Shown here piece by piece: positions 5,782 through 24,670 of a stretch of 32,000 bases of DNA; the first letter of the stretch is position 1; each line of letters begins with the position of its first letter. Made by a program: the position numbers and the translations under genes. This DNA is from Candidatus Omnitrophota bacterium. Lineage in GTDB: Bacteria > Omnitrophota > Gorgyraeia > Tantalellales > Tantalellaceae. Location of the stretch: NCBI GenBank assembly GCA_015231405.1, contig JADGBR010000027.1:5062-37061 (forward strand), written 5' to 3'. Under the pieces are notes generated by a model. It was given only the letters and a program-made list of their open reading frames with translations, did not search any database and was not told where the DNA came from.

Positions 5782-5793
5782 CGAACCACGAAA

Positions 5794-5854: not shown

Positions 5855-8476
5855 ATGCCAGCCAAGCCAGGGTCCGAACAGATCAACTCAGTTGTAATAA
5901 CCGGAGACGTCGCGAAGGATACTTACATCTATGAAGGGGAGAGGATGACTTCCCGGAAGGATGACTTGAGGGCGACTAAAGTCCATAAGGAGCTTGGCGG
6001 GGCGGAGCTGGTCTATAAGGTCCTGGACGCGCTCAATAGAAAAGCGGTGCTGGGATGGAATGTTACGAACGCCGTCGGATGCCCGGAAGGAAAAGGCGGA
6101 CAATGTATAAGCTCGTACTCTCATTGGGATCCGTTCGAGGATAAAAAAAATAAAAAACAGTCGATATGGCGCATGAGTAAAGCCCTGGGTTACGGATTTG
6201 AGGACTCAGCGCTCGATCCCGCCGTTAAACCGTTCGGCGGGTTGGATGAAGTCAAAAAGAAAGGAACGCCCAAGATCCTCGTAATACAGGACGCCGGATA
6301 CAAATTCAGGGCGCTCGGGAGGAACGATAAGTGGCTGTTGGAAAAAAGCCTGGACTGGGTGGTCATAAAACTTTCAAGGCCGCTTGCCGCGGGAGAACTC
6401 TGGGAAGAACTTATAGGGAATTACGCCGATAAGCTGGTCGTTATAGTTTCCGTAGATGAATTTCGTCTCGAAGATATCAAGATAGCGAAAGGGTTTTCAT
6501 GGGAACAGACGATAGAGGACCTGAGATATGCCCTGGGCACGGAGCCGCGGTACGCTGCGCTGGCTAAATGCGGGCACCTGATCGTCAGTTTTGGCGCGGA
6601 CGGGGCTTTATGGCTTGATAACGGTTCCAGTAATGACACCAAGGCGAAGTTCCTCGGCGATACATCACGCGCGGAGAACGAATGGGCGAACGGTTTGAAA
6701 GGCGAGTCCTTTGGTTATATGTCGACCCTCACGGCGGCGGTTACATACGCATTAATGGATCATTACGGCAAAAAAGGTTCCCCGGATCTCGCGAAAGGGA
6801 TCGAACGCGGGTTATCGGCGATGCGTGATCTTTTGGAGAACGGCCATGGCGGTCTTGTAAAAGACGGAATGCCGTCCGGATTCCCCGTGGAGCGCTTAGC
6901 GGAAAAAATATTAAAAGCTGAACGGTTCCTCTCAAGTATCATCGTGCCTTGGATCCATCCGGACAATATAAAAGATCAGGGCGATTGGATGATAGCCGAA
7001 ATGATGCAGCGGTCGCCTTCGTTCAAAGGGTACGTTTCGCTGCATGGGCTCGCTACGCAGGTGGTCATGTACGGTCAGGGGGTGCTGAAACATATACCTC
7101 ACGCGACTTTCGGGAAATTGACGACCGCGGACCGGAAAGAGATAGAAACGCTTCGCCGGTTAAAAAGGTTCATGACCGAGTATAAAAATGACCCGGACGA
7201 GAAAAAACCTAAAGCTTTCGGCGTTTTTGGCCCCCCCGGCGCCGGTAAATCGTTCGGCGTTAAACAGATAGCGAAAGAAGTGCTTGGCGATGGTAACTGG
7301 CTTGAGTTCAATCTTTCGCAGTTCGAGAGCCTATCCGAACTGTACGGGGCATTCCACCAGGTGCGTGACAGCGTGCTGGGCGGATCGATCCCGGTGGTTT
7401 TCATGGACGAGTTCGATTCCCAGAGATACAAGTGGCTGCAGTACCTAATATCGCCAATGCAGGACGGCATTTTTCAGGAAGGGCAGCTTACGCATACGGT
7501 CGGGAAATGCATTTTCATTTTCGCCGGCGCGACGAGCTATACTTACGAGTCGTTCGGGACTTTTAAGAAAACTCCGGATGGTATCGAAGCTGAGAAGGAT
7601 TTCATCCTGAAAAAAGGCCCTGATTTTAAAAGCCGGCTGGATACCTATTATAACGTGCTCGGCCCGAATAGGAGGATAATCGATCCCGAGACCGGTGTGC
7701 CGGATCCCGCGGATATCTCATGCCCGTTAAGGAGGGCCATTTTCATATCCTCGAAAATAAAATACAGCCCGGGTCTTCCCGCGCCGATAGATCCTGGGCT
7801 TGTGAACGCGCTCCTCAGGATATCGAAATATAAGCACGGCGCGCGCTCTTTGGATAAACTTCTTTGCATCCTCGGGTCGAAAGATAAAACTTCGCTTTTA
7901 AGGTCGTCCCTTCCGGCCGACGCGCAACTGGGGATGTATGTCGATCCAGCCGAATTTAACGCGCTTTTACTTGAGCCTCACAAGATCCTACGCGAACTTC
8001 CTATAGAGGACCTGGCCCGCGCGATCCATACGGGCTGGTCTTTGCTATGCGATAAAAAAGGCTTAAAAAAAGCCGCGCAATACGACAAAGAGTACAACGC
8101 GCTTGACGCTGACGGGAAGGAGGTCAATCGCGCAGCGGCCAGGAGGATACAGGAGATACTGGCTACGGTGAACCTGAAGATCGAAAAACCCGGAGCGCCA
8201 GGGAAAGCCGGCAAAGATCACGACGCGATCATAACCGGGCATCTTGAGCATCATTCGCCGCTTCTTGCGGAGCTTGAGCATAACGGGTGGATGAACCATA
8301 TGTTCAAGTCCGGGTGGAAATACGCGGATATCAGGAACGACGCGAAGAAAGAGCATGATCAGTTGAAACCTTATAACGAACTGCCGGAAGATCAAAAGGA
8401 CAAAGACAGGGATTCGATAAATAATTATCCCGCTGTGCTTAAAACATCCGGGTACAGCATAAACTGGATAAAATGA
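5855..8476 (+). CDS. Multidomain ATPase: N-terminal ribokinase/PfkB-like(?) domain, classical AAA+ ATPase, C-terminal RyR-domain region
   Basis: - AAA+ domain: Walker A FGVFGPPGAGKSFG, Walker B VVFMDEFDS, sensor-1-like IFIFAGATS.
- C-terminus: a clear RyR (PF02026-type) repeat, LAELEHNGWMNHMFKSGWKYADIRNDAKKEHDQLKPYNELPEDQKDKDRDSINNYPAVLKTSGYSI. It is preceded by a degenerate one, LARAIHTGWSLLCDKKG...YNALDADGKEVNRAAARRIQEILATVNLKI.
- N-terminal ~320 aa: a PfkB-like strand/helix pattern (VVITGDVAKDTYIY, GGAELVYKVLDAL, ILVIQDAGY, KLVVIVSVDEFRL, GHLIVSFGADGALWLDNG, KGESFGYMSTLTAAV). This part is a fold guess only. Confidence 0.75.
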   Translation: MPAKPGSEQINSVVITGDVAKDTYIYEGERMTSRKDDLRATKVHKELGGAELVYKVLDALNRKAVLGWNVTNAVGCPEGKGGQCISSYSHWDPFEDKKNKKQSIWRMSKALGYGFEDSALDPAVKPFGGLDEVKKKGTPKILVIQDAGYKFRALGRNDKWLLEKSLDWVVIKLSRPLAAGELWEELIGNYADKLVVIVSVDEFRLEDIKIAKGFSWEQTIEDLRYALGTEPRYAALAKCGHLIVSFGADGALWLDNGSSNDTKAKFLGDTSRAENEWANGLKGESFGYMSTLTAAVTYALMDHYGKKGSPDLAKGIERGLSAMRDLLENGHGGLVKDGMPSGFPVERLAEKILKAERFLSSIIVPWIHPDNIKDQGDWMIAEMMQRSPSFKGYVSLHGLATQVVMYGQGVLKHIPHATFGKLTTADRKEIETLRRLKRFMTEYKNDPDEKKPKAFGVFGPPGAGKSFGVKQIAKEVLGDGNWLEFNLSQFESLSELYGAFHQVRDSVLGGSIPVVFMDEFDSQRYKWLQYLISPMQDGIFQEGQLTHTVGKCIFIFAGATSYTYESFGTFKKTPDGIEAEKDFILKKGPDFKSRLDTYYNVLGPNRRIIDPETGVPDPADISCPLRRAIFISSKIKYSPGLPAPIDPGLVNALLRISKYKHGARSLDKLLCILGSKDKTSLLRSSLPADAQLGMYVDPAEFNALLLEPHKILRELPIEDLARAIHTGWSLLCDKKGLKKAAQYDKEYNALDADGKEVNRAAARRIQEILATVNLKIEKPGAPGKAGKDHDAIITGHLEHHSPLLAELEHNGWMNHMFKSGWKYADIRNDAKKEHDQLKPYNELPEDQKDKDRDSINNYPAVLKTSGYSINWIK

Positions 8477-9417
8477 CGTCCGCAGGCCGTCATTCCGGGC
8501 CCCTCCTAGCGAGGGCGAAGCGATCTATGAAGAGATATAAAACAAGCTCGGGGTTTCAGGGTATTCTATTCCTTTTATTTGGGGCATTGATCCTGAATGG
8601 ATATCCTGTATCCGCATCTGCAGCCGATAGCGTTTATTTTAAACCAAGTGGATCTCAGGTCATCGAAAGAGGCAAAGACGTCGAGTTTAGCTACACCCTT
8701 ACCGTCGACAATGCGGCCGTTGATCCTTCCGAGATCGGGGAAAGTCCCCTGCTATACACTCATGGCGCTAATGAGCTTATACCCGGTCTTGAGAAAGGGC
8801 TTCAGGGGATGAAGGTCGGAGAGAGGAAGAGGATAGTCGTCGGTCCGGAAGAAGGGTTCGGGGTTTTCGATCCCGGGCTTATCGTTGAGGTTCCCTTGAG
8901 AGAACTTCCGAAGGATATAATCCCGGAGATCGGCATCTCAGTTGACATGGAGGAGCCCAACGGCGACAGGGTCCCGGCAACTGTCCGCGAAGTGAAAGAA
9001 AAGACGGTGGTACTCGATCAGAACCACCCGTATGCCGGGAAGACCCTGGCATTCGATGTTACGGTCACTTCGATAAAGCAAGGCGACGTGAATAGAACAT
9101 ATCATATCCCCGGTATCTACTCCAGCCTGGATTATATTAATGAGTCCGGTGACCTTGTCGGCATGGAGGTCCTGATATTCCCGGGAGGTCCGGGTCGGGA
9201 TCATTCCGCGCTCGTCCAAATAGCCGAAGGAGAGGCCCCTTACGCGGCGCTTGTTCCCGTAAAGGTCCACGGTTCCCGCATAAGGTTCACAATGCCCAAG
9301 AACGGCCCGGTAGGCCCCGAACATTATGCCGGTACTATTAAAGATGACGCGCTGGTAATTGAGTATATAAAAGGCGGCGAGGAAATACTTAAACGCGGAA
9401 AAAGTTATTGGGAATGA
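8473..9417 (+). CDS. Exported FKBP-type peptidyl-prolyl cis-trans isomerase with an unrecognised ~110-aa C-terminal domain
   Basis: The FKBP core carries a flap insert (YTHGANELIPGLEKGLQGMKVGERKRIVVGPEEGFG ... LDQNHPYAGKTLAFDVTVTSIK). There is a signal-peptide-like segment, MKRYKTSSGFQGILFLLFGALILNGYPVSASA. The start is either the ATG at 8473 (an ATGA overlap with the upstream stop) or the ATG at 8527. Confidence 0.8.
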   Translation: MTSAGRHSGPLLARAKRSMKRYKTSSGFQGILFLLFGALILNGYPVSASAADSVYFKPSGSQVIERGKDVEFSYTLTVDNAAVDPSEIGESPLLYTHGANELIPGLEKGLQGMKVGERKRIVVGPEEGFGVFDPGLIVEVPLRELPKDIIPEIGISVDMEEPNGDRVPATVREVKEKTVVLDQNHPYAGKTLAFDVTVTSIKQGDVNRTYHIPGIYSSLDYINESGDLVGMEVLIFPGGPGRDHSALVQIAEGEAPYAALVPVKVHGSRIRFTMPKNGPVGPEHYAGTIKDDALVIEYIKGGEEILKRGKSYWE

Positions 9418-9759: not shown

Positions 9760-12700
9760 ATGAACCGCTCGGTCAAGCTATTCCTCTCCTACGCCCGCGG
9801 CGATGATGAGCCGTTCGTCAAACGCCTGTATGGCGACTTGACGAGCGCGGGGTTCGAAGTCTGGTATGACCGCGTGTCTATGCCTTCCCGCCAGCTCACT
9901 TTTCATACAGAGATAAGAGAAGCGGTCAACTCGGCGGACAGGTTACTCCTGGTCGTTGGCCCCAAGGCGGTCGAATCGGATTACGTCGAACAGGAATGGC
10001 GCTGGGCGTTGTTGCAGGATAAATGTTTAAACCCGATCCTTAGGCTTAACGGGCGCGCCGCGGACAAGAGCGTAATAGACGGGTATAAGTTAATACCCGA
10101 AGAACTGGTTATCCTTCATTCGGAGGATTTTCGTGACGACACGAAGTATGACGCGGCGCTCGCGAACCTCAAGAGGCAGCTTTCCGAGCCGATCCCTCCG
10201 TTTGGAAAGCTCGTAGCCGTCCCCGAACTTCCGGCGCATTTCAAAGCCCAGCCTGAAAGGCTCAAGAAATTACGCGAACTATTGCTCATCGACCTGAATA
10301 ACCCAACGGTAGTGACCGGCGCGGCCGCGCGCGTGGGTCTTGAGGGAATGGGCGGCATAGGTAAAAGTGTTCTTGCGTCCGCTCTTGCCCGTAACCCTGA
10401 GATACGCAGGGTCTTTTCCGACGGCATATTTTGGATAGGTTTCGGGCAGAAACCCGATATAGTCTCTCTCCAGCGCAGGATAGTTACCGAACTATGCGGT
10501 GACGCTCTTTTTAACGAGATAGAGATAGGCAAACAGCGGATGACCGATCTACTCAAGAGCCGCGCCGCGCTCATTATTATCGACGACGTCTGGGACAGGA
10601 AACACGCCGACGCGTTCAATGTCCTGGGCCCCAGGTGTAAACTGCTCTTAACGAGCCGTGATTCGGGCCTTGTAACTTCATTCGCCGGCAACGGCTACCA
10701 GGTCCAGCTTCTGACCGAGGCCGAATCGCTTGAACTGTTGGCTACGACATCCGGTTTTACATCTCAAACCTTACCAAAGATAGCCTCCGACATCGTGAAA
10801 GAATGCCAGCGACTTCCCCTGGCCCTCGCCCTTTGCGGCGGCATGGCCCGTAAAGGCCACGCCTGGGAAAATATCCACAAAGCCTTAAAGAACGCCCGCC
10901 TCGAGGTCATAGCCGACAGGCACGAAGCCGAAGAACAGCACACGAGCCTCTGGCGAACGATGGAAGTCAGCGTTCAGGTATTATCAAAAGAAGAGAAAGA
11001 GAGATTTGTCGAGCTTGCCGTCTTCCGTGAAGACATCGAGATCCCTCTGGAGGCGTTGATAACTCTTTGGACGAGGACAGGCGATATGGATGAGTTCTCC
11101 GCGGCGGAGACTATCATTTCATTCAAGGAAAGGTCACTTATCCAGGTCAACACAAGAAAACTTCCCGATGGCACGACACAAAAGATAGCGACAATCCATG
11201 ATCTAATCCGCGATTACGCCGTCCGTCTCGCGAAACAGAAAGAAGGAGGAATAGCGGCTCTTCACGCCCAAATGCTGGACGCTTACAAAACCAAATGCCC
11301 GAAAGCTGAATGGCACACCGGCCCCAATGACGGTTACTATTTCGAGAATTTGAGGCATCATTTCATAGTTGCCGGGGAGATCGATAAATGCGTCGATCTC
11401 TTTACCGGGCTACGGTGGATAGAAGCCAAATGCAAATACGGTTTAACATTCGACCTGGAGAATGACTTTCGCGATCTTCTCCGGGCATTGCCTGAGGCGG
11501 CGGCACAAATAGAAGAAGAGCGAAAACGGGAAATGCCTATCGCCAGATGGGCGGATGAAATGGTCGCGTATTCAAAAGAGTGGAGCCTCCGGGGGGTAAA
11601 AGGGTCGACTGGCCAAAACCCTGAGCCAAAACTTCCCGAACCTGTCCCGGCATGCGGATTATCGACAGACGAAGAGATGAACGCTGAGATAGGCCGTCTC
11701 ATAGCGTCCCCGACGCGGGTTGACAGGGTAAAAGCATTCTCGAACTTTGTCGCTACCCAGCTATATCCTTTAAGTAAATACGCGAGCCACCCCGGTTTTG
11801 TCATCCAGCAGGCGTCCAATTCCGCTCCGGATGGCCCTGTTCATAGGACGGCGTCTGATCTTCTCACGGGGATCTGTATTCCATTTATCTTGCGAGTGTG
11901 GAAAAAACATGACCGTTACGAGCCTAAACAGGCGCTTTTAATGGCGCTCGAGGGGCATAACGATATCATTAGAAGCGTTTCTGTCACTCCGGACCATAGA
12001 AGAGCGGTCTCCGGAGGCAGCGATAAGACGCTCCGGGTCTGGGACCTGGAAAGCGGGGTATGTTTGCATTCTCTTCACGGCCACGACGATATTATAAGGA
12101 GTGCAGCTATCACTCCTGATGGTGTAAGGGCCGTCACGGGAAGTTGGGATAAGACTTTACGGGTATGGGATATCGAGAACGGCGTATGTTCGTATGTTCT
12201 CCGGGGGCATACTGACGATGTGAGGTGCGTCGCGATCACTCCTTGCGGGAAAAAAGCCGTTTCAGGGAGCCGTGACGGGACACTCAGGGTATGGGACCTG
12301 GAAAACGGTTCTTGTATTTCGGCGCTTAAAAAGATCGATGGCCATATTGAAAGCGTCGCCATCACCCCTTGCGGAAGAAAGGCGGTATCGGGAAGCAGCG
12401 ACAAGAAGCTACGGGTATGGGACCTTGAGACCGGAGCCTGTTCGAGCACATTCACGGGACATAACAATAATATAGTTAGCGTTGCCGTTACGCCTGACTG
12501 CAAAGTGGCGGTATCGGGGGATTGGAACGGGGAGATCCGGGTATGGGACATAGAGAAAGGGATATGTTCGCGTTCTCTCAAAGGGCATAGCGATATCGCG
12601 AGAAGCGTCGCCATAACCGCCGACGGTAAGCGGGCGGTTTCAGGAAGCCGCGACAAGACGTTACGGCTATGGGATCTGAGCAATGGCGGGCTTTTACGCG

Positions 12701-13689
12701 TTATCTCCGGTGATAGCGACGATATGAGGAGCATATCTATCGTTCCGGACGGGAGGATGGCCGTCACCGCGGGGAGCGATAAGAAACTTCGGTTATGGGA
12801 CATAGCAAGCGTCTCATTCCGGAAGGCTCCTGATACCCATCGCGATGACGTGAGGGGTGTTTCTATCACTCCTGACGGCAGAACAGCCGTTTCGGGGAGT
12901 AAGGATAAGACGATCAGGGTATGGGACATAGAGAGCGGAACATGCTTACGGACCCTCACCGGGCACAGCGATATAGTAAGATGCGTCGCCGTCGCTCCGG
13001 ATGGGAAGACCGCGTTCTCGGGAGGCGGCGATAGGGTATTACGCGTATGGGACATAGAGAAGGGAGTGTTTTTACGGGCTCTCCCGGGACATACAGGCAG
13101 CGTGAAATGTATTTCGTTCTCTCCCTGCGGGAAAAAGGCGATATCGGCATGCGGTGATTCCACTATAAGGATATGGGACATAGAGAACTGGGTGTGTTTA
13201 CGCGTGCTTGAAGGGCATAGCGATGATGTTAGAAGCGTTTCGATCACTACTTCCGGGAAACATGCCGTCTCGGGCAGTAAAGATAAGACTATCAGGGTCT
13301 GGGATATAGAGAGCGGGGCCTGTCTCCGCGTGATCGAAGCCCATACGGACATTGTAAGAAGCGTCGCCATTACTCCTGACGGTCGAAGAGCCGTTTCCGG
13401 GAGCAGTGACAAGACGCTCAGGGTATGGGACATAGAAAGCGGATCATGCATCCGCGTCATTGAAGGGCACAGCGATTATGTCATGAACGTCGCTGTTACA
13501 TCCGACGGAAGGAAGGCTGTCTCTATAGGCTGGGATGAAACGGTACGCCTGTGGGACATAGAGACCGGCAGGTGCCTGTCGATCTTCAGCTTCCCGGAAC
13601 CGGCGACCGCCCTGGCATTGAAGCCCGATGATAGCGGAGCCATCGTCGGGACACATAACGGACAACTTCTTTTTCTTGATTATAAATGA
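9760..13689 (+). CDS. TIR - NB-ARC (STAND NTPase) - 14x WD40 protein (Apaf-1/NLR-like)
   Basis: - TIR: KLFLSYARGDDEPFVKRLYGDLTSAGFEVWYDRVSM...LLLVVGPKAVESDYVEQEW.
- NB-ARC: P-loop GMGGIGKS, kinase-2 LIIIDDVWD, LLLTSRD, GLPL-like RLPLALALCGG, MHD-like TIHDLIRDYA.
- WD40: fourteen 42-aa repeats of the type GH-x-D-x-[VI]-R-S-V-A-I-T-P-D-G-x-x-A-V-S-G-S-x-D-K-T-L-R-V-W-D. Confidence 0.92.
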   Translation: MNRSVKLFLSYARGDDEPFVKRLYGDLTSAGFEVWYDRVSMPSRQLTFHTEIREAVNSADRLLLVVGPKAVESDYVEQEWRWALLQDKCLNPILRLNGRAADKSVIDGYKLIPEELVILHSEDFRDDTKYDAALANLKRQLSEPIPPFGKLVAVPELPAHFKAQPERLKKLRELLLIDLNNPTVVTGAAARVGLEGMGGIGKSVLASALARNPEIRRVFSDGIFWIGFGQKPDIVSLQRRIVTELCGDALFNEIEIGKQRMTDLLKSRAALIIIDDVWDRKHADAFNVLGPRCKLLLTSRDSGLVTSFAGNGYQVQLLTEAESLELLATTSGFTSQTLPKIASDIVKECQRLPLALALCGGMARKGHAWENIHKALKNARLEVIADRHEAEEQHTSLWRTMEVSVQVLSKEEKERFVELAVFREDIEIPLEALITLWTRTGDMDEFSAAETIISFKERSLIQVNTRKLPDGTTQKIATIHDLIRDYAVRLAKQKEGGIAALHAQMLDAYKTKCPKAEWHTGPNDGYYFENLRHHFIVAGEIDKCVDLFTGLRWIEAKCKYGLTFDLENDFRDLLRALPEAAAQIEEERKREMPIARWADEMVAYSKEWSLRGVKGSTGQNPEPKLPEPVPACGLSTDEEMNAEIGRLIASPTRVDRVKAFSNFVATQLYPLSKYASHPGFVIQQASNSAPDGPVHRTASDLLTGICIPFILRVWKKHDRYEPKQALLMALEGHNDIIRSVSVTPDHRRAVSGGSDKTLRVWDLESGVCLHSLHGHDDIIRSAAITPDGVRAVTGSWDKTLRVWDIENGVCSYVLRGHTDDVRCVAITPCGKKAVSGSRDGTLRVWDLENGSCISALKKIDGHIESVAITPCGRKAVSGSSDKKLRVWDLETGACSSTFTGHNNNIVSVAVTPDCKVAVSGDWNGEIRVWDIEKGICSRSLKGHSDIARSVAITADGKRAVSGSRDKTLRLWDLSNGGLLRVISGDSDDMRSISIVPDGRMAVTAGSDKKLRLWDIASVSFRKAPDTHRDDVRGVSITPDGRTAVSGSKDKTIRVWDIESGTCLRTLTGHSDIVRCVAVAPDGKTAFSGGGDRVLRVWDIEKGVFLRALPGHTGSVKCISFSPCGKKAISACGDSTIRIWDIENWVCLRVLEGHSDDVRSVSITTSGKHAVSGSKDKTIRVWDIESGACLRVIEAHTDIVRSVAITPDGRRAVSGSSDKTLRVWDIESGSCIRVIEGHSDYVMNVAVTSDGRKAVSIGWDETVRLWDIETGRCLSIFSFPEPATALALKPDDSGAIVGTHNGQLLFLDYK
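11947..13686 (+). repeat. Tandem 126-nt (42-codon) WD40 coding repeats, 14 units
   Basis: The period is visible at both DNA and protein level, for example GATAAGAC(G/T)(C/A)T(C/A)(C/A)GGGT(C/A)TGGGA recurs. Units 8, 11 and 12 are especially similar to one another. Confidence 0.9.
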
Positions 13690-14686: not shown

Positions 14687-17600
14687 TTAGCTCCAGGGTA
14701 TATCCACGGGAAGGGAAGGCTGGTCTTTCCAAATGGTCAATTGATCGAGTTCGGGTGTGTCTTCGCGGTTGTTCAGGGCCTTGTAGAGAAGCGTAACGAA
14801 GTTGAGGTCCCGAGCCGATATACGGGGACGAAGATGGTCGAGGAAGTCGCCGATATCCCAGAATTGAGTGATATTGGCTTTGTCTCCAGGAGGGTCTCCC
14901 TGTCTAAGAGCCCGGATCCGGCCTATGTATGGCTCCATGGGCTCGTTTTGGAGTAACGCCGCGGCGGATCTCACGAAGAGTATCCGTTGACTTGTGATAT
15001 CGTGTCCCGAAGCCAGTTTGATAGTCCAGGCGCGTGATAACAGCTCACGGGCTTCGGCGTATCCTTCCTTCATGACGAGCACTATCGAGAGGTTGTTCAT
15101 CCGGTGCGCTATTTTTGGGTCGGAGGGTTCACGGGAGGACTCGTCATGGCTCAATGCTTCGCGTAATAGCCTCTCGGCTTCGTCGAGCCGGCCGATTTTC
15201 CGGGCGCTTAAGGCTTCGTTATTCAGGGCTACCGCCCGGCCCCAGCTTGCTTCGGTCGTCGACATTTTTATGTCTCCGGGGACATCGGCACTATCAGATA
15301 TGCCGAGGATCGTGGAATTAAGCTGGGAAGGATCGCCGGTCTCGAGATATTTGGCAAGGTCAGGGTGAAATCTGTATTCCTGCTTGAACCATGTAGCAAG
15401 GGTCATACAGTAAATGATCTGGCGTAGCGGTCCGAAGAGCCGGGATCCCGTTAAGGACCTTTGGATGGTGGGGACGATGTGTTTTTGGAACGCGTTATTG
15501 AGGCGGTCTATCGATCCTTCCGGAGCGATTCGATGAGTGCGCGGTAAATGCCATTCCCAGAACACATCAAGAGGCGCCTTTGTGACGGACGCGTGATTCT
15601 CTCCGGGAGTGATGAGGTCGGATAATCTGCCTTCCGGAGTACCTGTGTATACCTGAGCACAGGCCGGAGAGATAAAAATATCGATCGGGAACTCATGTGG
15701 ATCCGTTCCGGCGAAGGTCGCAGCCGGGTTAACATCGCTCCTGAAGGCCTTTCCGGCGGGATTGTCCCCGGAAAGCGCGGCCGAGACGAATTCGCTTAAA
15801 ACCTGTCCCTGTTCGGCCAGCATTGACCCGAGTTTTGATCCGCGAAGCTGCGGAGGCATTTCCGAATCGGACGCCGCCCATTGATCTTCCTCGTTCACCG
15901 AGATAGCGGCCAGAAATATATCCACAAGTGACCGTGTGTCTTTTTGTCTATTACCGCTCCAGTCCTTATCCGATCCGGTATCAATGATAAAATTCCAGTT
16001 CAGTTTATCGCTGTCCTGTATCGATACGCCGGTTATCATAGGCGGATGCCAGGGTTCCGGGTCTTTCGCGGTCAGTTCATCGGAAATTTCCCGCGCGTGT
16101 GTGGGCGAAGAGAGTACGGCCGGGTGAGTATCGGAGAATTTAGCCCGGGCTTCGAGGATCCGGAGTTTTCTGCGGAGGCGCCGTTCGGGCTGTTTTTTTA
16201 GTTCGTCGGTACCCCACTGGGGCCTATTCACCAGGGTCAATTTCGCGTATTGGCGTTTAGCTTCGGTCAGTTTATGGACGCTAAGGAGGAATTCAGAGAA
16301 ACGTTCAAGCACCGTTTCCTTGAACGGATGCTCGTCAGGAAATACGGACAAACGTTTTATGGCGTCCTCAAAATAACGTTCGGCGCCGTTAAGGTCGCCT
16401 TTTTTAGTCAACAGTTCCGCTAATTGGGTGCGGCAGATGATGGCTAATTGAGGTTTGACGGTGTGTTTCCCGTCCTCGGTCGAAAGTTCCACGGCTTTCC
16501 GGAGCAGTTTTTCACCTTCAACAAGGTCTCCTGCCGATGTGACCAATATCGACAGATTGTTCAGCGGTTTAGCGAAATCGCTTCGCCTGACGGTGGCGTG
16601 ATGCGACTCATAGATGGCGATGGCGCGGCGGTAGCAGTTCTCCGCTTCGTTCTTTTCGCCCAGATCACTATGAGCCAGCCCGAGGTAGTTGAGCGCGCTT
16701 GCTGCGTTCGGGGTGTCTTTCCCGTCAGAGCTCTCGAATATCTCGAACGCGCGGCGGAAAGCCTCGAGGGCTTCTTTTGGCCGTTTGAGCGCGCGAAGCG
16801 ACTCTCCGCGGTTGATGTGCTTGTTGGCGGTATCGGTGGTCCCTTCAAAACCAGGTGAACGGGAGATAACATTTAGTGTTGACTCTTCCATGGCAAGAGA
16901 TAGAACGTGGAGGCCTTTGCCGAACAAAAGAGTGCCGATGGAGGTCATTAGCGCCGGGTTAGACGGCAGTTTGTCGTCGGAAACGAAGGATCCGATCAGG
17001 AACTCGGCGTGAGGGCGGAGCACATCCCAGACGGCCCATGTCCTGGGACTTTCCGATGTTTCCTCCGGGGCGTATTTCGAGACGAGCGCCTGTACGCGTC
17101 CGTGCCAGAGTGGCAGGAGCTCCGAACTCATATGGTTCCTCATTATACGTTGTTCCATCCGATGGATGCTGAAAAACCCGTCGCCGCGGGATATCAGCGA
17201 ATATCGTCCGAGTTCTGCCAGGGCGTCGGGAACGGTCTGGCCGGTCCTGGTCTCGCCGGACCCTTCGCACCATAATGTCACGAGCGCCAACGTTTCGTTA
17301 GGGCAGGCCTCGAACATCGCTATCGGGATCGGGTCGGGAGCGAGAAATGCCGATCCCCTTAGTATTGCCTTGGCTTCGGGGGAAAGCCTGTCAAAAGAGA
17401 GGAAAAAAGTTGTGGCAACGGTCTTGATCAGGGCTTTGCGGGCCGCTTTAGCCTCGGGCGTTGAGGGCCCTCTGTCATCCTTGTCAAGTTCGGTCTCGTA
17501 TTCGATAGCGGTGTGATCGTGATAGGCTAGCAGTCGTTCAAAATGACGTTCAAAATCGTCCAGATACGCCGCGAATCCCATATGATGATGTTGCATATAG

Positions 17601-18718
17601 GCCGTGGCGTGGGTTAGGGCGAGCGGAAGATTGCCGAGACGTTCTGCGAGCGTTCTTGCCTGTAGCTTATCTCCCTCTTTTGGCATCCGCCACGCGGCCG
17701 TGGATTCGACAAGGAGCGCTACGGCATTTTCAGTCGAAAGAACGTCAAGCGGCAGTGGGCGGACACCGCGGCCCCACTCCGTTACGCGCGATGTTATCAG
17801 TACATGCCCGCCGCGGAGTTTGGCGACCAGAGATTTAACCGCTCTCACGCTTTCGTCGGTATCCACATTATCAATGATGAGAAGCCAGCCTTTATTCTGC
17901 TGAAGCCACCGTATGACCGCGTCACGCTGCTCGTCCTGGTTTATAGACCTATATTCGGGAAGGTCCAGACAATCACCTGGCCGGCAGAGAGAGGCTAGAT
18001 TGGAATCAAGGTCTTCGGGCCTGTTGGCTGAGACAAATAGGCACGCGGTGAAGTCATTCTGATGTCTCCAGGCGTATTCTATAGCGAGACGGGTTTTGCC
18101 TATTCCGCAGAGGCCGTGGATAATATGCGGTTGGAGCAATGCGGCTGAGCCGTGTTTCCGGAGCTCACGGTCGATCTCCGCGAGCGTTTCTTCCCGGCCT
18201 TTGAATAACTCGGCCAGAGAGCTGAACGGGAGATTCCAAGGGATACGTCCGGGGTTTATGAGCTTATGTACCTGCCGGCAGACGTCGAGCAGCGTAGCGT
18301 TCAGCGACGGTTCTTGGAGTTTTTCGAGAGGCGTAGCCGTAGCGGCGGCGGCCTGTATATCTGTGATCGGTCGAAGTTCCGGGGGGGCGAGAGGTCCGTC
18401 AAAAGTCCCGGAAAGCGGTATCCATACGACGGTCAGGCCGTCCTTAGCCGCCTCGATAATGCGCGGCAGCTCCTCACGCATGATAAAATCTGACGCGAGG
18501 AAGTTGGGAGATATAAGGAGTAAAGCGACGCGGGCGTGCCTGACGGCTTCGTCTATCTCAATGCGCCAGCGGTCTCCGGTCTCGATCCGCCGGTCGTCCC
18601 AGTAATCAAGCCTTCCGTTTCGGATATCGGGCGCGAAATGTTCGCGCAGCTTGTCCAGCCACGCGGCGTCCTTGTGGCTGTAGCTTACGAACACTTGTGT
18701 GCGGTAGGAAATAGGCAT
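14687..18718 (-). CDS. TIR - NB-ARC (STAND NTPase) - TPR protein with an internal unrecognised ~250-aa domain
   Basis: - TIR: VFVSYSHKDAAWLDKLREHF...ALLLISPNFLASDFIMREEL.
- NB-ARC: P-loop GLCGIGKT, Walker B LLIIDNVD, VLITSR, LGNLPLAL, MHD-equivalent SIHRMEQ.
- TPR: TPR_12-like repeats (ALNYLGLAHSDLGEKNEAENCYRRAIAIYE and others), then an unknown domain, then further TPR-like repeats.
- Start: the track ORF extends to 19042, but that 108-aa extension overlaps the divergent gene. The ATG at 18718 (MPISYRTQVFVSYSHKD) is the likely start. Confidence 0.88.
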   Translation of the reverse strand: MPISYRTQVFVSYSHKDAAWLDKLREHFAPDIRNGRLDYWDDRRIETGDRWRIEIDEAVRHARVALLLISPNFLASDFIMREELPRIIEAAKDGLTVVWIPLSGTFDGPLAPPELRPITDIQAAAATATPLEKLQEPSLNATLLDVCRQVHKLINPGRIPWNLPFSSLAELFKGREETLAEIDRELRKHGSAALLQPHIIHGLCGIGKTRLAIEYAWRHQNDFTACLFVSANRPEDLDSNLASLCRPGDCLDLPEYRSINQDEQRDAVIRWLQQNKGWLLIIDNVDTDESVRAVKSLVAKLRGGHVLITSRVTEWGRGVRPLPLDVLSTENAVALLVESTAAWRMPKEGDKLQARTLAERLGNLPLALTHATAYMQHHHMGFAAYLDDFERHFERLLAYHDHTAIEYETELDKDDRGPSTPEAKAARKALIKTVATTFFLSFDRLSPEAKAILRGSAFLAPDPIPIAMFEACPNETLALVTLWCEGSGETRTGQTVPDALAELGRYSLISRGDGFFSIHRMEQRIMRNHMSSELLPLWHGRVQALVSKYAPEETSESPRTWAVWDVLRPHAEFLIGSFVSDDKLPSNPALMTSIGTLLFGKGLHVLSLAMEESTLNVISRSPGFEGTTDTANKHINRGESLRALKRPKEALEAFRRAFEIFESSDGKDTPNAASALNYLGLAHSDLGEKNEAENCYRRAIAIYESHHATVRRSDFAKPLNNLSILVTSAGDLVEGEKLLRKAVELSTEDGKHTVKPQLAIICRTQLAELLTKKGDLNGAERYFEDAIKRLSVFPDEHPFKETVLERFSEFLLSVHKLTEAKRQYAKLTLVNRPQWGTDELKKQPERRLRRKLRILEARAKFSDTHPAVLSSPTHAREISDELTAKDPEPWHPPMITGVSIQDSDKLNWNFIIDTGSDKDWSGNRQKDTRSLVDIFLAAISVNEEDQWAASDSEMPPQLRGSKLGSMLAEQGQVLSEFVSAALSGDNPAGKAFRSDVNPAATFAGTDPHEFPIDIFISPACAQVYTGTPEGRLSDLITPGENHASVTKAPLDVFWEWHLPRTHRIAPEGSIDRLNNAFQKHIVPTIQRSLTGSRLFGPLRQIIYCMTLATWFKQEYRFHPDLAKYLETGDPSQLNSTILGISDSADVPGDIKMSTTEASWGRAVALNNEALSARKIGRLDEAERLLREALSHDESSREPSDPKIAHRMNNLSIVLVMKEGYAEARELLSRAWTIKLASGHDITSQRILFVRSAAALLQNEPMEPYIGRIRALRQGDPPGDKANITQFWDIGDFLDHLRPRISARDLNFVTLLYKALNNREDTPELDQLTIWKDQPSLPVDIPWS

Positions 18719-18859
18719 ATATTGCGATAAATATACCACCGTAGGGAATGCGGGGTCAACAAGATACTCCTCTATCCTGTATATTATCGTTGATTCGTTC
18801 GGGAAATATGCTATTTTAGTGTTGTTGAGATGCTGCTTAAAGCCATCATAAGGAGTGAT

Positions 18860-20095
18860 ATGGGAATAAGGCCGAAACATATTGTTATAATTGCCGTGAT
18901 ATTGGTCTTCGCCGCCTTTGCCGGGTACGCTGGCATGGTGTGGAGCTATATGTACCGCGGGCACATGCTGGTCCAGAAGGGAGACTACGATGGGGTTGTG
19001 AAGGCGCTTTCCAAGGCTGTCAGGCTGGCGCCGAATAACCATTTAACGTACTGGGGCAGAGGTGACGCTTTACTTGCGCAAGGAATGTATATGGAGGCGG
19101 CCCGGGATTATGAAAAGGTCCTTGAGTTATATAGATCTTTCAGGCCATCGGTAAAAAAGAACTTTCTCGATAAAATAGCGCTTTCAAAAACCGGCGGTAA
19201 CGGTATCGTAAGGGAATATTATCCCGGTGGAGAGGTAAGAAGGGAGTTGACGTTCGTCAATGGCCGGCAGAACGGGATATCCAGGATGTATTTTCCGTCG
19301 GGAAAGGTCATGTCCGAGGTAGAGTTCAGGGATAATGCGATCGACGGTGCTTTCGAAAGATATTTTGAGGACGGCAAAACTGAAATGGAAGGTAGTTTTC
19401 TCGCCGGGAAAATGAACGGCGCGGCTAAAATGTACTATCCGGGAGGCGTATTGAAGTCCGAAGGGAATTTCGATGCCGGAGAGATGGAAGGGGTCTTCAA
19501 AGCTTATTACAGGAACGGTAACCTAAGAAGCGTATCGGATTATAAGGACGATCTCCCGAACGGCACACACAAGTCATATTATCAAAGCGGAGCTTTTAAG
19601 GGTGAAATGAGCGCCAGGAACGGCAACGCCGACGGCGTATCTTCCGAATATCACGAGAACGGCGAACTTGTTTATAAATGGAATTATTCGGACGGCGCGT
19701 GGGACCCGGCGAATATCGTCGTCTTCGATAAGAAGGAGAAGCTTGTAACGACTTATTTTAAAAGCGGCGGCATTGAATCGGAAATACCGTATATAGGCGG
19801 CAAGATCGAGGGTAAGGTCATGGGATACTACGAGGGTGGGGTGCTTAGAGACGAGTCTCTGTATAAGGAAGGCAGGCCCGACGGCGTCGGGATGACATAC
19901 GATGAGGACGGGAAGTTATACAGTAAGTCCTTCTATCGGGGCGGTGTTTGTGACGGTGAATGGTTTTATTATTCGGAAACCGGAACGGCCAAGTCAAAGG
20001 TATCGTTCAAGAACGGCAAATTCGTGAAACTTGAAACATTTGATCCTTCGGGCAGGATAACTAAGACAATTAAGCCTCCGGAGAATATTCAGTAA
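18860..20095 (+). CDS. Membrane-anchored TPR + MORN-variant (YwqK-like) repeat protein
   Basis: There is one N-terminal TM helix (IVIIAVILVFAAFAGYAGMVW) and a TPR (GDYDGVVKALSKAVRLAPNNHLTYWGRGDALLAQGMYMEAARDYEKVLEL). About ten repeats of the G-x-x-x-x-Y-Y-x-x-G type follow (REYYPGGEVRRELTFVNGRQNGISRMYFPSGKV...). The ATG at 18860 is preferred, with AAGGAG 4-5 nt upstream. The track start is 18830. Confidence 0.75.
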   Translation: MGIRPKHIVIIAVILVFAAFAGYAGMVWSYMYRGHMLVQKGDYDGVVKALSKAVRLAPNNHLTYWGRGDALLAQGMYMEAARDYEKVLELYRSFRPSVKKNFLDKIALSKTGGNGIVREYYPGGEVRRELTFVNGRQNGISRMYFPSGKVMSEVEFRDNAIDGAFERYFEDGKTEMEGSFLAGKMNGAAKMYYPGGVLKSEGNFDAGEMEGVFKAYYRNGNLRSVSDYKDDLPNGTHKSYYQSGAFKGEMSARNGNADGVSSEYHENGELVYKWNYSDGAWDPANIVVFDKKEKLVTTYFKSGGIESEIPYIGGKIEGKVMGYYEGGVLRDESLYKEGRPDGVGMTYDEDGKLYSKSFYRGGVCDGEWFYYSETGTAKSKVSFKNGKFVKLETFDPSGRITKTIKPPENIQ

Positions 20096-21272: not shown

Positions 21273-22205
21273 GTGGCACAAACTAAAGCTAATCAAAGGC
21301 AGGAAATAATGGAAAAGAAAAAAGTGCAGTTGAACAATAAGCTGGTGTGGCCGAGCGAACCTTACAAGCCTGATACGGGGATGATGCCTGAGTTCGTCGG
21401 GAGGGAGAGCGAGATGGAGCTTATCATGGCGGCGTGGATAGCGGGTAAGAGGACACTGCCGTTATCTCCGGTGCTTGTCGGTGAGCCCGGCGTCGGGAAG
21501 AATAGGATCGTATATGAGCTCGCGCGGTTTACCGGACGTGACATTTATCTTTTTCAGGGGCATGAAGATATTACCGCGGAGGATCTCGCCTGTACTGTCC
21601 GGTTCAGCGACGATAAGGCTAATATGATGGAATATGTCCTTTCGCCGCTTGTTTGCGCCATGCTTAACGGGGGGATATTCTTTTTGGATGAGATAGGGAA
21701 GATCCGTCCTCGGGCACTCGCGCTTCTCGTCAGTGTCCTCGACGAACGGCGTTATATCGATTCGACGCTTCTTGGCGAGAGGGTCTACGCCCAGCCGGGG
21801 TTCAGGTTCATAGCGGCGACTAATACAGGCGAAGTGAGCCTCCTTCCCGAGTTCATCAGGTCGCGCGTGAGGCCCGTTATCAAGATCGGGTATCCGCCGC
21901 GCGTGGAGATCGAGGAGATCATCAGCCGGCAGTTCAAGCCGAGGATGGACAACCTTGCGACTCTTATTGAAAAGTTCTGGGCGTTGTGGGATGAAAGGAT
22001 CAAGGATAAGATACCGCCGACGCCGAGGGACGCTATAGCGGTGTTCAGCCTGGCTTCCAGTATAAGCGATTTTGAGAGCCGCGGGGGTTCGGAAAAACTG
22101 AAGAGCGCGATAAAGGCCGACGCTTTTACGCTGGAAGCCGGCGACAAGCCGCAGGCTGTATCGTCAAAGCATCTCGAAAAGGCGTTAAGGAAATTATACG
22201 ATTAA
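21273..22205 (+). CDS. MoxR-like AAA+ ATPase (AAA_5 / CbbQ-NorQ-like)
   Basis: It has Walker A VLVGEPGVGKN (unusual Asn after the Lys), Walker B GGIFFLDEIG, sensor-1 FRFIAATN, and LPEFIRSRV. The track start at 21273 is GTG. The ATG at 21309 (MEKKKVQ) is an alternative. Confidence 0.8.
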   Translation: MAQTKANQRQEIMEKKKVQLNNKLVWPSEPYKPDTGMMPEFVGRESEMELIMAAWIAGKRTLPLSPVLVGEPGVGKNRIVYELARFTGRDIYLFQGHEDITAEDLACTVRFSDDKANMMEYVLSPLVCAMLNGGIFFLDEIGKIRPRALALLVSVLDERRYIDSTLLGERVYAQPGFRFIAATNTGEVSLLPEFIRSRVRPVIKIGYPPRVEIEEIISRQFKPRMDNLATLIEKFWALWDERIKDKIPPTPRDAIAVFSLASSISDFESRGGSEKLKSAIKADAFTLEAGDKPQAVSSKHLEKALRKLYD

Positions 22206-22206
22206 A

Positions 22207-24570
22207 ATGAACGAAGACACGAAACATCCTTGCTACGAGTATGTATATCGCGGGGCCAAATTGATGGCGGTGCCGGCAGTTCATCATCAGTCGGCTTTTG
22301 CCCACGCCGTCCACGAGATAGCTCGCGATCCGGTATCACGGCCTGACGCGATAGCAGTCGAGCTGGGTCAGGAAGCGCTTGAAGAGCTAGTGAAATTCCT
22401 CAAAGAGTTGGGGCAGGGAGGGGTGAAGAAGGTGATCCTGACCTGCATGCTTGGAATTATGCTGAGGAATAAATATATCCGCGTCGAAGATCGCGAAAAG
22501 GCGCTTCTACTGCAGGGGCTTTATCAAAAGACGCTCGCGGATCTCCCGGATGAAGTCCTGGCCAGGGGGCTTGATTTCAGCAAGTGGTCGACATTGTTCC
22601 TTGATCCGGCTGACTCCATTATTGAAGCGGTCCGTTCGGCCCTGGAGCTTGATGTCCCGGTTTACGGCGTGGATCTCGTTAATTTCGCGTCGGCGCATCG
22701 AAGCGGCATGAGCATAGAGGATCCCCAGTCGGCGCATGACGATCAGCGGCGTTACGCCGACCGCGTCATGGGATATTGCGGCGCGATGCGGGATCACCGT
22801 ATCGACCTTGCCCGGGAAACGTTCATGGCCAGAGGGCTAAAGGATTGTCTAACCAGGCATAAAAAGGTGCTCTTTACCTGCGGCATGGCCCATTGGAAAA
22901 GCATCGTGTCTTTATTGGAGGATGAAAATGTTACGCCGTTCCCATCTCATGAGATCAGGGAGGGCGTCCAGTTAAAACGGATAATAATCCATCCCTCGCT
23001 CGCGGCGCCGTCGATGGAAGTGCTGCCGCAGGTTACTATGGAATATGAAAAGGAGAGATATCCCGTTACGTCCCGTAAAAAGCGCGTTAGGGGGGTTAAC
23101 ACGGCTGGTGGGCTTATCAGGAAGACCCTCGATGGGGCATATCTGGAGTATACCCGGGATGAGGCTGACGCCGGAACGGATGAAGGCGGGGCCGACAGCT
23201 GGTCGGATATAGGCGTTTTCGAACAATATCTTTTCCAGCTGGCGGCGGTGAGCCAGAGAAAAGTCCCGGGATTTTCGACGATGCTCCGGTCATCCGAGGC
23301 TGTAATGGGCGTGGAATTTACGAGAACTCTGGTAAAACATATGATGCTTCTGGACCCGGATTGGGCTTCGGAAAAGGATTTTCCGGAGCTTCCCGTTATG
23401 GGGCCTAACCCGGGTGAAAGTGATGGATCCTCAGCGAACGTTTCGAGAAGAAAGGTCAGGCTGGAAAGAAAGGGTATGGAAGACGGACTGGGAACCGGAG
23501 ACGGGGCGTCTTTTTATGCCGAGATACCCTCAGGGGGCGACATAGATCCGTCGGCGTTAGAGAAGTACTGGAAATGGGACGATGAGGCCGAAGAAGGCGG
23601 AGGCTCGGGCGGAGGCAGCTCCTGGATGTGGCCGCCTTGTGAAACCCTTCTCTACGGGCTTGGGTTCAAAGCCGTTGATATCTCTGATTCGGAAAAAAAC
23701 ACCATGGCCCGGCCGATGCCTTTCGAAGGCTCGATGGAGAGCGGCATTAACGTGAAAGCGACGATGCGGTCCATGATCCGGGGGGAACGGAAAGTGTATG
23801 TCTCCCGGCTGGCATCGAGATCCGAAAGAAATACGAGCGACGGGATAGACCCCGAGCCCATGGTCTTCATATTTGAGAAGGGCAAGGACTGGCCCGGGGC
23901 TTACTGGCAGACGATGCAGGCCGGGTCGCGCCTGGGTGAGATCGTAAAAGATAAGAAGCTCTTTAGGGACATGGCGGTTAAGTATGGCACGACTTTTGTC
24001 CCTTGTGTGCACGCCATCAGGAATATGAAAACCCCGGAACATCTGAAGTCGCTTGTGTCGTCGATGGCTTTTCTTGTAGGCTCGGTCCTTTTCGGGAACC
24101 CGTGCGTTAACGCGAAACAGTCCGCTATCTGGATAGAAGCGACAAAATATAAGTGCTGCCCGATAGTAAATGATTGCAGCGTGAGCGGGGTGCGTAACTA
24201 TTATCTCAATGAGAAAAACATTAATCTGGATCTCGGCCTCTGGGCCGAATCGCTGATACTTATGGCTATCCCTTTTTCCAAAAAAAGCGTGACCGTGATA
24301 GCTCCGGACCTTTTCAGTATCCCTCCGAGGGCCCGCGTAGAGGCGGCGAGAAGGAAAGTAACTTTGAGCCATGTGCCTTTATCCCATTTCTCGGAAGAAC
24401 AGGTGAAAAAGGCGCGCGAGAGGATCATGATCAATACCCTGGACCAGGACGGACAGTGCTTTCCCCCTGAATCTGAGCGGGTTCTTTCCCAGAAAAAAGG
24501 GGCTTATGTCGAGCTTTTGCCCTACGAGATGAGGAAGCAATTGTCGCTTGATGAAGGAGTGAATGAATGA
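22207..24570 (+). CDS. Large uncharacterised protein (787 aa); N-terminal TraB/PrgY/TIKI-like domain (putative), remainder unknown
   Basis: There is a 1-nt gap after the AAA+ gene. The N-terminus LMAVPAVHHQSAFAHAVHEIARDPVSRPDAIAVELGQEAL, then DSIIEAVRSALELDVPVYGVDL and VLFTCGMAHWKSIVSLL, follow the TraB-family pattern (G-x-x-H...PD-x-V-x-V-E-L ... G-x-x-H). A Gly/Ser/acidic linker (EAEEGGGSGGGSS) splits the protein. The long antisense ORF 23557..24372 is rejected. Confidence 0.7.
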   Translation: MNEDTKHPCYEYVYRGAKLMAVPAVHHQSAFAHAVHEIARDPVSRPDAIAVELGQEALEELVKFLKELGQGGVKKVILTCMLGIMLRNKYIRVEDREKALLLQGLYQKTLADLPDEVLARGLDFSKWSTLFLDPADSIIEAVRSALELDVPVYGVDLVNFASAHRSGMSIEDPQSAHDDQRRYADRVMGYCGAMRDHRIDLARETFMARGLKDCLTRHKKVLFTCGMAHWKSIVSLLEDENVTPFPSHEIREGVQLKRIIIHPSLAAPSMEVLPQVTMEYEKERYPVTSRKKRVRGVNTAGGLIRKTLDGAYLEYTRDEADAGTDEGGADSWSDIGVFEQYLFQLAAVSQRKVPGFSTMLRSSEAVMGVEFTRTLVKHMMLLDPDWASEKDFPELPVMGPNPGESDGSSANVSRRKVRLERKGMEDGLGTGDGASFYAEIPSGGDIDPSALEKYWKWDDEAEEGGGSGGGSSWMWPPCETLLYGLGFKAVDISDSEKNTMARPMPFEGSMESGINVKATMRSMIRGERKVYVSRLASRSERNTSDGIDPEPMVFIFEKGKDWPGAYWQTMQAGSRLGEIVKDKKLFRDMAVKYGTTFVPCVHAIRNMKTPEHLKSLVSSMAFLVGSVLFGNPCVNAKQSAIWIEATKYKCCPIVNDCSVSGVRNYYLNEKNINLDLGLWAESLILMAIPFSKKSVTVIAPDLFSIPPRARVEAARRKVTLSHVPLSHFSEEQVKKARERIMINTLDQDGQCFPPESERVLSQKKGAYVELLPYEMRKQLSLDEGVNE

Positions 24571-24592
24571 ACGGTTCGGTTCAAAACGGAGC

Positions 24593-24670
24593 CGTCATTG
24601 CGAGCGAAGCGAAGCAATCTCTATAAGTAATGGGGATTGATTCGTTCGCTTTAGCGCCCCCGCAATGACG
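24593..24670. repeat. Family-B palindromic element (full copy)
   Basis: CGTCATTGCGAGCGAAGCGAAGCAATC...GGATTGATTCGTTCGCTTTAGCGCCCCCGCAATGACG has complementary termini (CGTCATTGCG / CGCAATGACG) and complementary inner blocks (GAAGCAATC / GATTGaTTC). Confidence 0.75.

Follow-up and report, generated by a model that had tools for sequence, protein, structure and literature searches.

The usual view of a bacterial TIR-STAND protein is that of a suicide switch contained in a single protein, and two distinct genes of this kind lying next to each other raise the question of whether they act independently or, like the paired NLRs of plants, as sensor and helper. We addressed this question in a 32,000-nucleotide stretch of a Candidatus Omnitrophota bacterium genome (contig JADGBR010000027.1 of assembly GCA_015231405.1, positions 5,062 to 37,061; hereafter the window), in which the gene for a TIR-NB-ARC-TPR protein at 14687-18718, the target, faces a TIR-NB-ARC-WD40 gene, the partner. 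The best reading of the locus is that the two are structurally independent sensors in a larger conserved module, the common element of which is a protein combining an AAA+ ATPase with a ryanodine receptor (RyR) domain. Comparison of related loci showed the stronger link to be with this AAA+/RyR gene, which is the most conserved partner of the target, ahead of the WD40 gene. Because of this, the likely logic is one of several TIR sensors sharing one nucleotide-binding partner, and not of two NLRs pairing.

Anatomy of the target protein

The original prediction, made from the DNA letters, placed a second TIR and NB-ARC protein with TPR repeats at this position, and the open reading frame (ORF), the Pfam domains and a set of invariant motifs all bear it out. 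The gene is contained in the minus-strand ORF 14687..19042 of the window's ORF listing, and its product is 100% identical to P0001, 'MAG: tetratricopeptide repeat protein [Candidatus Omnitrophica bacterium]', which is annotated with 1397 amino acids (aa). The start of P0001 lies 54 codons 5' of the ATG at 18718 (window 18719-18880) and would overlap a divergent gene beginning at 18830. ATG 18718, giving a product of 1343 aa, is the best-supported start, because the same alignment column is the start in four of seven aligned homologues (P0002, P0004, P0005 and P0014), a promoter-like site is present and the longer call overlaps the divergent gene; the public annotation is probably an over-extended gene call. 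With this start, 111 base pairs (bp) separate the start codons of the target and the divergent gene, a TPR and MORN-repeat gene that is not conserved in related loci.

Within the amino-terminal domain the match to Pfam TIR_2 spans aa 9-123 at 53.1 bits, against a cut-off of 28, and the ThsB1 model of PADLOC matches the same domain (expectation value, E, 1e-17). The putative catalytic residue, E83, is invariant in the homologues, and HMMER pairs it with the Glu of WCLDEL in the plant protein AtTIR. The Pfam match to NB-ARC is marginal (aa 179-380, 25.1 bits against a cut-off of 23.5), and the assignment is backed by an alignment to NRC2 (E 0.003) and by the NCBIfam family FxSxx_TPR, which scores 267 bits over the NTPase; DUF7779, a winged-helix region, follows at aa 441-533. 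We aligned the target with seven full-length homologues of 29-56% identity. In these eight sequences G202, G205, G207, K208 and T209 of the Walker A motif GLCGIGKT (202-209) are invariant, as is the Walker B motif LLIIDNVD (279-286), where D283-N284 together with D286 make up a DN variant. Sensor-1 R311, LPLAL 364-368 and H519 at the MHD position are also invariant in all eight. Loss of the NTPase motifs, named beforehand as something that would count against the proposal, was not found, as every motif is intact and invariant in the alignment.

The target shares its chassis of amino-terminal TIR, NB-ARC/AP-ATPase and carboxy-terminal TPR with the TIR-AP-ATPase-TPR proteins of conflict systems, catalogued by Kaur, Burroughs, Iyer and Aravind in 2020 (PMC7159879), and with NF040586. 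The latter, FxSxx_TPR, is the closest curated family (aa 172-571), AfsR being much weaker, and the NTPase is closest to the FxSxx_TPR/AfsR lineage. This affinity to the TPR protein of the FxSxx-COOH system would be expected if the target were a non-immune AfsR/FxSxx-type regulator of stress, development or peptide-modification pathways, and the Hsp20, MerR and FKBP genes upstream, together with the lack of mobile-element genes, tRNA or GC anomaly in the window, would fit such a role. However, the score falls below the family cut-off of 300, the amino-terminal domain is a TIR with a catalytic Glu, and we detected no DNA-binding domain in the target and, although an AAA_5 gene is nearby, no FxSxx peptide-processing, vWA or radical-SAM family in the window. 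The target also departs from the FxSxx system in having an extra domain of ~300 aa and a link to the AAA+/RyR gene. Moreover, conservation beside homologues extends to TIR, STAND and RyR genes but not to the Hsp20, MerR and FKBP genes. A non-immune regulator is therefore very improbable, and we consider it highly likely that the target functions as an NLR-like TIR sensor and that the locus is one of conflict.

The TPR sensor of the original prediction is only part of the carboxy-terminal half. A strong array is present at aa 626-790 and a weak TPR match at aa 1171-1230, but the carboxy-terminal 45% of the protein is more than an array of this kind, with an alpha/beta domain and a helical module. 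The AlphaFold model of aa 797-1343 (mean predicted local distance difference test score, pLDDT, 80) consists of a compact alpha/beta domain of ~300 aa followed by a TPR-like helical module, and the domain modelled alone, as aa 844-1148, gave a pLDDT of 79 and a predicted template modelling score of 0.82. Even with the E limit raised to 5, Pfam gave no match to the alpha/beta domain, and neither the PDB (best E 0.5) nor BFVD (best E 0.08) gave a fold match, while a fold search with the whole carboxy-terminal half returned generic TPR proteins only. A profile search of 1.84 billion cluster representatives, dominated by TPR matches, found it in only ~9, all apparently of the same architecture. 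The last ~185 aa are a module that many other proteins also have at their carboxy-termini (profile positions 365-553), and are weakly shared with the product of 24665-25732 in the window (E 3e-5). In the related locus L166 a 623-aa TIR protein (11270-13141) has a weak match to the alpha/beta domain (E 2e-9) and is encoded directly downstream of a target homologue that lacks it, which hints at gene fusion or fission and suggests that the domain can exist as a separate TIR-fused gene. It could be an integrated domain or decoy, and in the sensor arm it is a candidate new ligand-recognition or decoy module. We found no description of this domain in the literature and libraries searched, although absence there is no proof of novelty.

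The WD40-type neighbour

The NB-ARC module of the partner scores 109 bits in Pfam and matches Apaf-1, to which it is closely related, over aa 185-583 (E 3e-31). A bacterial Apaf-1-like class was described in 2026 (PMC13581612), and the partner belongs to it. The two genes had been predicted to converge from opposite strands within 1 kb, and their stop codons are indeed 998 bp apart. The gap is not empty, as it contains a gene for a CpXC zinc-ribbon protein. This gene is absent from all related loci examined, was dropped as a system component on that ground and is probably not part of the unit. The prediction was also right that the target and partner are not recent duplicates: BLASTP aligns them over just 79 aa of the TIR domain (27% identity, E 0.004), the NTPase modules do not align and the two belong to different lineages.

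Whether the pair is inherited together has a mixed answer. Orthologous WD40-type partners stand beside orthologous TPR-type genes in L002 (43% identity over the full length of the partner, 52% over its amino-terminal part) and in L167 (47% over 700 aa), and the TPR-type proteins of these two loci are 58-64% identical to the target over the amino-terminal 750-790 aa. In L001 and L003 the target homologue is accompanied by what is left of a degraded second TIR-STAND gene: pieces of TIR and NPHP3_N together with a WD40 gene in the former, and in the latter a TIR of 75 aa (56% identical). On the other side, the WD40 partner is absent from L004, L005, L165 and L166. Of the nine loci of close relatives that are informative, three have the pair (the window, L002 and L167) and four lack it, and its order and orientation vary, the genes being convergent in the window and co-directional in L002 and L167, with different genes between them. 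The pair is recurrent, but it is neither fixed in arrangement nor obligate.

These loci bear directly on the idea of an obligate sensor/helper pair of the plant type, in which the TPR-type and WD40-type proteins would form a hetero-complex, one sensing and the other executing. The adjacency of the same two lineages in three loci and the remnants in L001 and L003 are what this idea would predict, and the unusual extra domain of the target could then be an integrated decoy. Yet the genes of the window are arranged tail to tail with another between them, and the P-loop, Walker B and catalytic Glu are intact in both proteins, each of which has a full sensor arm of its own. The varying arrangement and the four loci without the pair also argue against it, as do the one to four TIR sensors of interchangeable type per AAA+/RyR locus, which point to modular sensors working in parallel. 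The plant-like arrangement is not borne out, and we regard obligate pairing as very improbable.

The AAA+/RyR gene and the proposed pathway

We found the more constant neighbour of the target homologues in the AAA+/RyR gene. The classical AAA+ module of its 873-aa product carries GPPGAGKS (459-466) and VVFMDEFD (514-521), and its carboxy-terminal domain matches RyR (PF02026) at 59.5 bits against a Pfam cut-off of 27.4, with E values of 5e-19 to RyR repeat structures and 3e-22 to RyR R12 structures. Homologues (30-39% identity) occupy the position immediately 5' of the target homologue in L001, L002 and L003 and lie near it in L005 (Terracidiphilus) and L027 (Bacteroidetes); none was found in the other 79 of the 84 NB-ARC-TPR loci. 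In L005 a TIR-NB-ARC-TPR gene is found on each side of the RyR gene, and L027 has, besides a SLATT-like gene, three TIR/DUF4062-STAND genes. TrkA_N-RyR proteins are also encoded in L001 and L003, and L001 additionally encodes a SLOG (LSDAT_prok) protein. In L165 the place of the AAA+ protein is taken by an 873-aa protein of RelA_SpoT, SLOG (LSDAT_prok) and RyR domains, encoded between two NUDIX genes, one with an NrtR-type winged helix (the group at 4062-7855), and accompanied by two more TIR-STAND/TPR genes, which with the target homologue makes three. From its domains and neighbours this is a second type of predicted RyR-domain partner, in a context of ADP-ribose (ADPR) metabolism.

The association also holds in the opposite direction. 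Scanning metagenomes with an aligned set of AAA+/RyR family proteins gave 80 loci, 76 of them distinct, in which we located TIR ORFs with a local TIR profile. These were present in 21 of the 76 and in 18 of the 31 whose flanks reach 8 kb or more; of the 52 loci in which the downstream sequence was long enough, 13 have a TIR gene that begins no more than 1.5 kb from the stop codon of the ATPase gene. The density of TIR ORFs was 4.9 per 100 kb of flank, compared with 0.13 in a control made up of the outer flanks of L006-L084 (one TIR ORF in 762 kb), an approximately 40-fold enrichment (Poisson P 6e-33), with the caveat that the control is a single event in loci that are not random. All 29 distinct TIR matches were confirmed as Pfam TIR_2, and one Glu, equivalent to the catalytic Glu, is invariant among them. 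Their carboxy-terminal parts vary, being WD40, TPR, NB-ARC-TPR, NPHP3_N-TPR or a PQQ propeller, and four AAA+/RyR loci have two to four TIR genes each. In L141 (28-10405) the AAA+/RyR gene is followed by two large TIR-WD40 genes that are convergent, as in the window. Adjacent same-strand genes without a TIR domain were enriched for DUF4062, NACHT/AAA_16, WD40, TrkA_N and the SLATT-like DUF4231.

What the RyR domain might bind is suggested by two preprints of 2026 on phage proteins. Phage RyR-domain proteins bind or cleave 2' and 3' cyclic ADPR (2'cADPR and 3'cADPR), RyDEP doing so through H75/W78/H100/D117 (PMC13232231), and RyR Tad binds 1''-3' and 1''-2' glycocyclic ADPR (1''-3' gcADPR, 1''-2' gcADPR) and cADPR through H129/W132, K147/H154 and K170/D171 (bioRxiv 10.64898/2026.06.04.730250). 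The AAA+/RyR protein of the window has H809/W812/R827/H834/K850/D851 at the published spacings (+3, +18, +25, +41, +42), these positions being mapped by spacing from the published residue numbers and not by structural alignment. Of 137 distinct RyR domains in the family loci, 134 have the first His and 134 an aromatic residue; 101 have the second His and 128 the Asp or Asn. We therefore propose the AAA+/RyR protein as a candidate shared signal-binding partner of the TIR sensors. The His/Asp dyad of the RyDEP type is present in it as well; because the dyad that is catalytic in RyDEP is also found in non-catalytic sponges (PMC13232231), an effector and a threshold-setting sponge or hydrolase are not told apart by it.

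We give about an even chance to the full model, in which several STAND-gated TIR sensors would feed an ADPR-derived signal to the shared AAA+/RyR protein. What the comparison establishes directly is how the domains are laid out, that the motifs are intact, that the synteny recurs and that the residues contacting the ligand are conserved. What triggers the sensors, which signal they make and what the AAA+/RyR protein does we infer as follows. At rest, the TIR NADase of the target would be held inactive by the ATP switch of its NB-ARC module, the arm being formed by the TPR array, the alpha/beta domain and the helical cap. By analogy with established STAND NTPases and TIR NADases, each sensor would bind its own trigger through the repeat arm, exchange nucleotide and oligomerise in an ATP-dependent manner, and the clustering of TIR domains would activate cleavage of nicotinamide adenine dinucleotide (NAD+). 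The ADPR-derived product, a cADPR isomer or relative, may then be bound by the RyR domain of the AAA+ protein, as the synteny and the RyR literature would suggest. The AAA+/RyR protein would either execute the response or set its threshold by sequestering or hydrolysing the signal.

Several observations weigh against this model, besides the non-random control. No toxic domain is recognisable in the AAA+/RyR protein, and sequence searches of Pfam and the PDB gave no match to its 440-aa amino-terminal domain. In the window 6.2 kb and three genes separate the AAA+/RyR gene from the target, which lies on the opposite strand. The ATPase homologue beside the closest target homologue, in L002 (644-3472), lacks the RyR domain, the target homologues of L004 and L166 have no RyR gene within the available flank, and no TIR gene is seen in 13 of the 31 AAA+/RyR loci with at least 8 kb of flank. 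The same residues and pocket bind ATP or ADP in the R12 domains of animal RyR (PMC13232231), and the ligand could be an ordinary adenine nucleotide. Finally, TIRs fused to characterised antiviral STANDs have been treated as NAD+-depleting effectors that need no receptor (bioRxiv 10.64898/2025.12.03.692087). As to the domains without matches, a ribokinase- or sirtuin-like assignment of the 440-aa domain was dropped, as it had no Pfam match and an 11-sequence profile found nothing in the PDB. The different carboxy-terminus of the L002 ATPase (~240 aa) also has no Pfam or PDB sequence match, and our guess of a SLOG domain there is unsupported by these searches.

Some of these points would suit two stand-alone, Avs-like abortive-infection sensors, each oligomerising and then killing or arresting the cell by NAD+ depletion on meeting its own phage protein. 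The two would then be neighbours only through the clustering of defence genes, and the AAA+/RyR protein would belong to an unrelated system or act at most as a safety valve that mops up ADPR products. Each protein unites effector, switch and sensor in a single chain, as do characterised Avs/bNACHT proteins, the amino-terminal domain of which is the effector, and the opposite strands of the target and the AAA+/RyR gene, like the homologues in L004 and L166, are easily accommodated. Against this, the TIR enrichment beside AAA+/RyR genes would not be expected, nor would the restriction of these genes, among the 84 NB-ARC-TPR loci, to the neighbourhood of the target's closest relatives. The co-occurrence of RyR, SLOG, NUDIX and SLATT-like genes in related loci is hard to explain if the TIR product is not read, and none of the Avs or bNACHT models of PADLOC (PADLOC-DB 2.0.0 of 2023), the check suggested with the original prediction, matches the target at E <= 0.01. 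We consider stand-alone action unlikely, though clearly less so than obligate pairing.

Locus setting and related systems

The defence-island-like clustering that had been predicted is seen, as both STAND genes belong to a run of conflict-type genes, ~20 kb long, with housekeeping genes on either side (Table 1). Neither a tRNA nor a compositional anomaly points to recent acquisition of the region as an island. When 13 window proteins were scanned with PADLOC and NCBIfam, none could be assigned to a known defence system, apart from TIR-level and PDC-M72A-like matches. The matches of the target are TIR-level only (ThsB1, SAVED_TIR and PDC-S66), and the AAA+/RyR protein has none in PADLOC.

Table 1. 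Features of the window discussed in the text, in order of position; domain limits in aa refer to the 1343-aa product.
Feature	Positions	Strand	Basis or remark
MerR-family regulator, then two Hsp20 genes	4490-5717	+	Directly upstream of AAA+/RyR gene
AAA+/RyR gene, 873 aa: amino-terminal domain without match, AAA+ ATPase, carboxy-terminal RyR (R12-type) domain	5855..8476	+	Pfam, RyR structures
FKBP-type peptidyl-prolyl isomerase-like gene	8473..9417	+	FKBP_C E 2e-13; overlaps AAA+/RyR stop codon by 4 bp
Partner gene, 1309 aa: TIR, Apaf-1-like NB-ARC, 13 WD40 repeats	9760..13689	+	Pfam, Apaf-1 match
CpXC zinc-ribbon gene, 259 aa	13838..14617	+	Pfam CpXC; between the two STAND genes
Target gene, 1343 aa: TIR, NB-ARC (AP-ATPase), winged-helix domain, TPR, alpha/beta domain, carboxy-terminal helical module	14687..18718	-	ORF, Pfam, homologue alignment
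Carboxy-terminal TPR-like helical module of target (aa ~1157-1343)	14690..15250	-	Model and profile matches
Uncharacterised alpha/beta domain of target (aa ~844-1148, ~300 aa), after TPR array	15275..16189	-	AlphaFold model
TPR array of target (aa 626-790)	16349..16843	-	TPR_12 120 bits, TPR_10 79 bits
NB-ARC NTPase and winged-helix module of target (aa 172-533)	17120..18205	-	Pfam, alignment, NCBIfam
TIR domain of target (aa 9-123), putative catalytic Glu E83	18350..18694	-	TIR_2, ThsB1 model, alignment
Sigma-70-like promoter-like site, TTGACC-18-TATATT, 10/12, TG extension	18730..18759	-	Consensus match only
TPR and MORN-repeat gene, hydrophobic amino-terminus	18830-20095	+	Divergent from target; weak match to LIC20035 adhesin family
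Operon: AAA_5 (MoxR-like) ATPase (310 aa), 787-aa protein without family match, 355-aa protein (24665-25732)	21273-25732	+	
Ankyrin and DUF6794 protein	25835-26569	+	PADLOC candidate defence model PDC-M72A (E 1e-18); only non-TIR-level defence-model match in window

The MerR and Hsp20 genes look like housekeeping stress genes and form the left edge of the conflict-gene stretch. Next to them, the overlap of the FKBP gene with the AAA+/RyR stop codon suggests translational coupling. No homologue of this gene was found in any related locus, for which reason it was rejected as a system component, and its membership of the module is uncertain. In animals FKBP12 partners RyR, and the FKBP gene beside the RyR gene echoes that pairing, which may be coincidence. 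Further downstream, the AAA_5 ATPase and the 787-aa protein of the operon recur in L003 as neighbours of the target homologue, with 54% and 30% identity. The amino-terminus of the 787-aa protein has a TraB/PrgY-type resemblance, seen by eye only and unverified; as a vWA partner of a MoxR-type system this protein had no support from Pfam, NCBIfam, PADLOC or the PDB.

How does the locus compare with described systems? It shares the layout of effector, STAND switch and repeat sensor with Avs/bNACHT proteins and bacterial Apaf-1 orthologues (Nature 2026, PMC13581612). Unlike Avs/bNACHT, with whose models it shares no match, it has a conserved nucleotide-binding partner, which suggests that the TIR is a signal generator and not a terminal effector. 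In Thoeris, of which types I-XI have been described (bioRxiv 10.64898/2025.12.03.692087), the ThsB TIR generates a cADPR-type signal that an effector binds. In both, a TIR gene lies beside a gene for a domain that binds, or here would bind, an ADPR-derived signal, and the TIR domains match ThsB models. Unlike in Thoeris, the TIR here comes fused to a STAND NTPase or large repeat arm that gates it, several sensors share one candidate reader, and that reader fits no described effector type (ThsA, ThsC-ThsL).

The RyR domain of the window belongs to the same Pfam family as RyDEP and RyR Tad and has the same ligand-contact residues at the same spacing. Whereas those are small phage sponges or glycosidases, it is host-encoded and fused to an AAA+ module and a 440-aa domain, and its gene is linked to TIR genes rather than opposing them. 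The pathway that we propose also resembles the plant TNL-EDS1-helper-NLR pathway, in logic only, in that a TIR product would be read by a separate protein and sensors would converge downstream. Unlike plant TNLs and paired NLRs, the locus has no EDS1-family or helper-NLR homologue, and its genes are not head-to-head.

The chassis of both genes is thus already known and ordinary for the field, while the RyR link is undescribed in the sources searched. In the Thoeris survey (bioRxiv 10.64898/2025.12.03.692087) RyR and AAA are absent from the main text, and RyR, ryanodine and PF02026 from the supplementary files searched, where the 'AAA' passages inspected are strain names; a survey of NAD-ADPr in viruses does not mention RyR. 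We found no description of a conserved link between TIR genes and a host AAA+/RyR protein in the literature and libraries searched, where absence is again no proof of novelty. We would class the locus as a variant of TIR-based immune signalling in which the sensors are gated by STAND modules.

If the model is right, it would add a new effector class to TIR immune signalling and would mean that the convergence of multiple sensors on a common downstream component exists in bacteria. It would also supply a host-side counterpart for the two phage RyR-domain anti-Thoeris discoveries of 2026, and would be relevant to the long-standing, unsettled matter of a cADPR action on the R12 domain of RyR. We hold more tentatively, at somewhat less than even odds, that host RyR proteins, the AAA+/RyR protein as well as the TrkA_N-RyR proteins of L001 and L003 and the RelA_SpoT-SLOG-RyR protein of L165, serve as receptors or effectors in a TIR immune pathway that is gated by STAND modules and has multiple sensors. 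Were this so, the pathway would be a bacterial counterpart of the small-molecule signalling of plant TNLs to shared downstream components, and such host readers may be an evolutionary source of the phage RyR sponges and of the connection between cADPR and RyR in animals.

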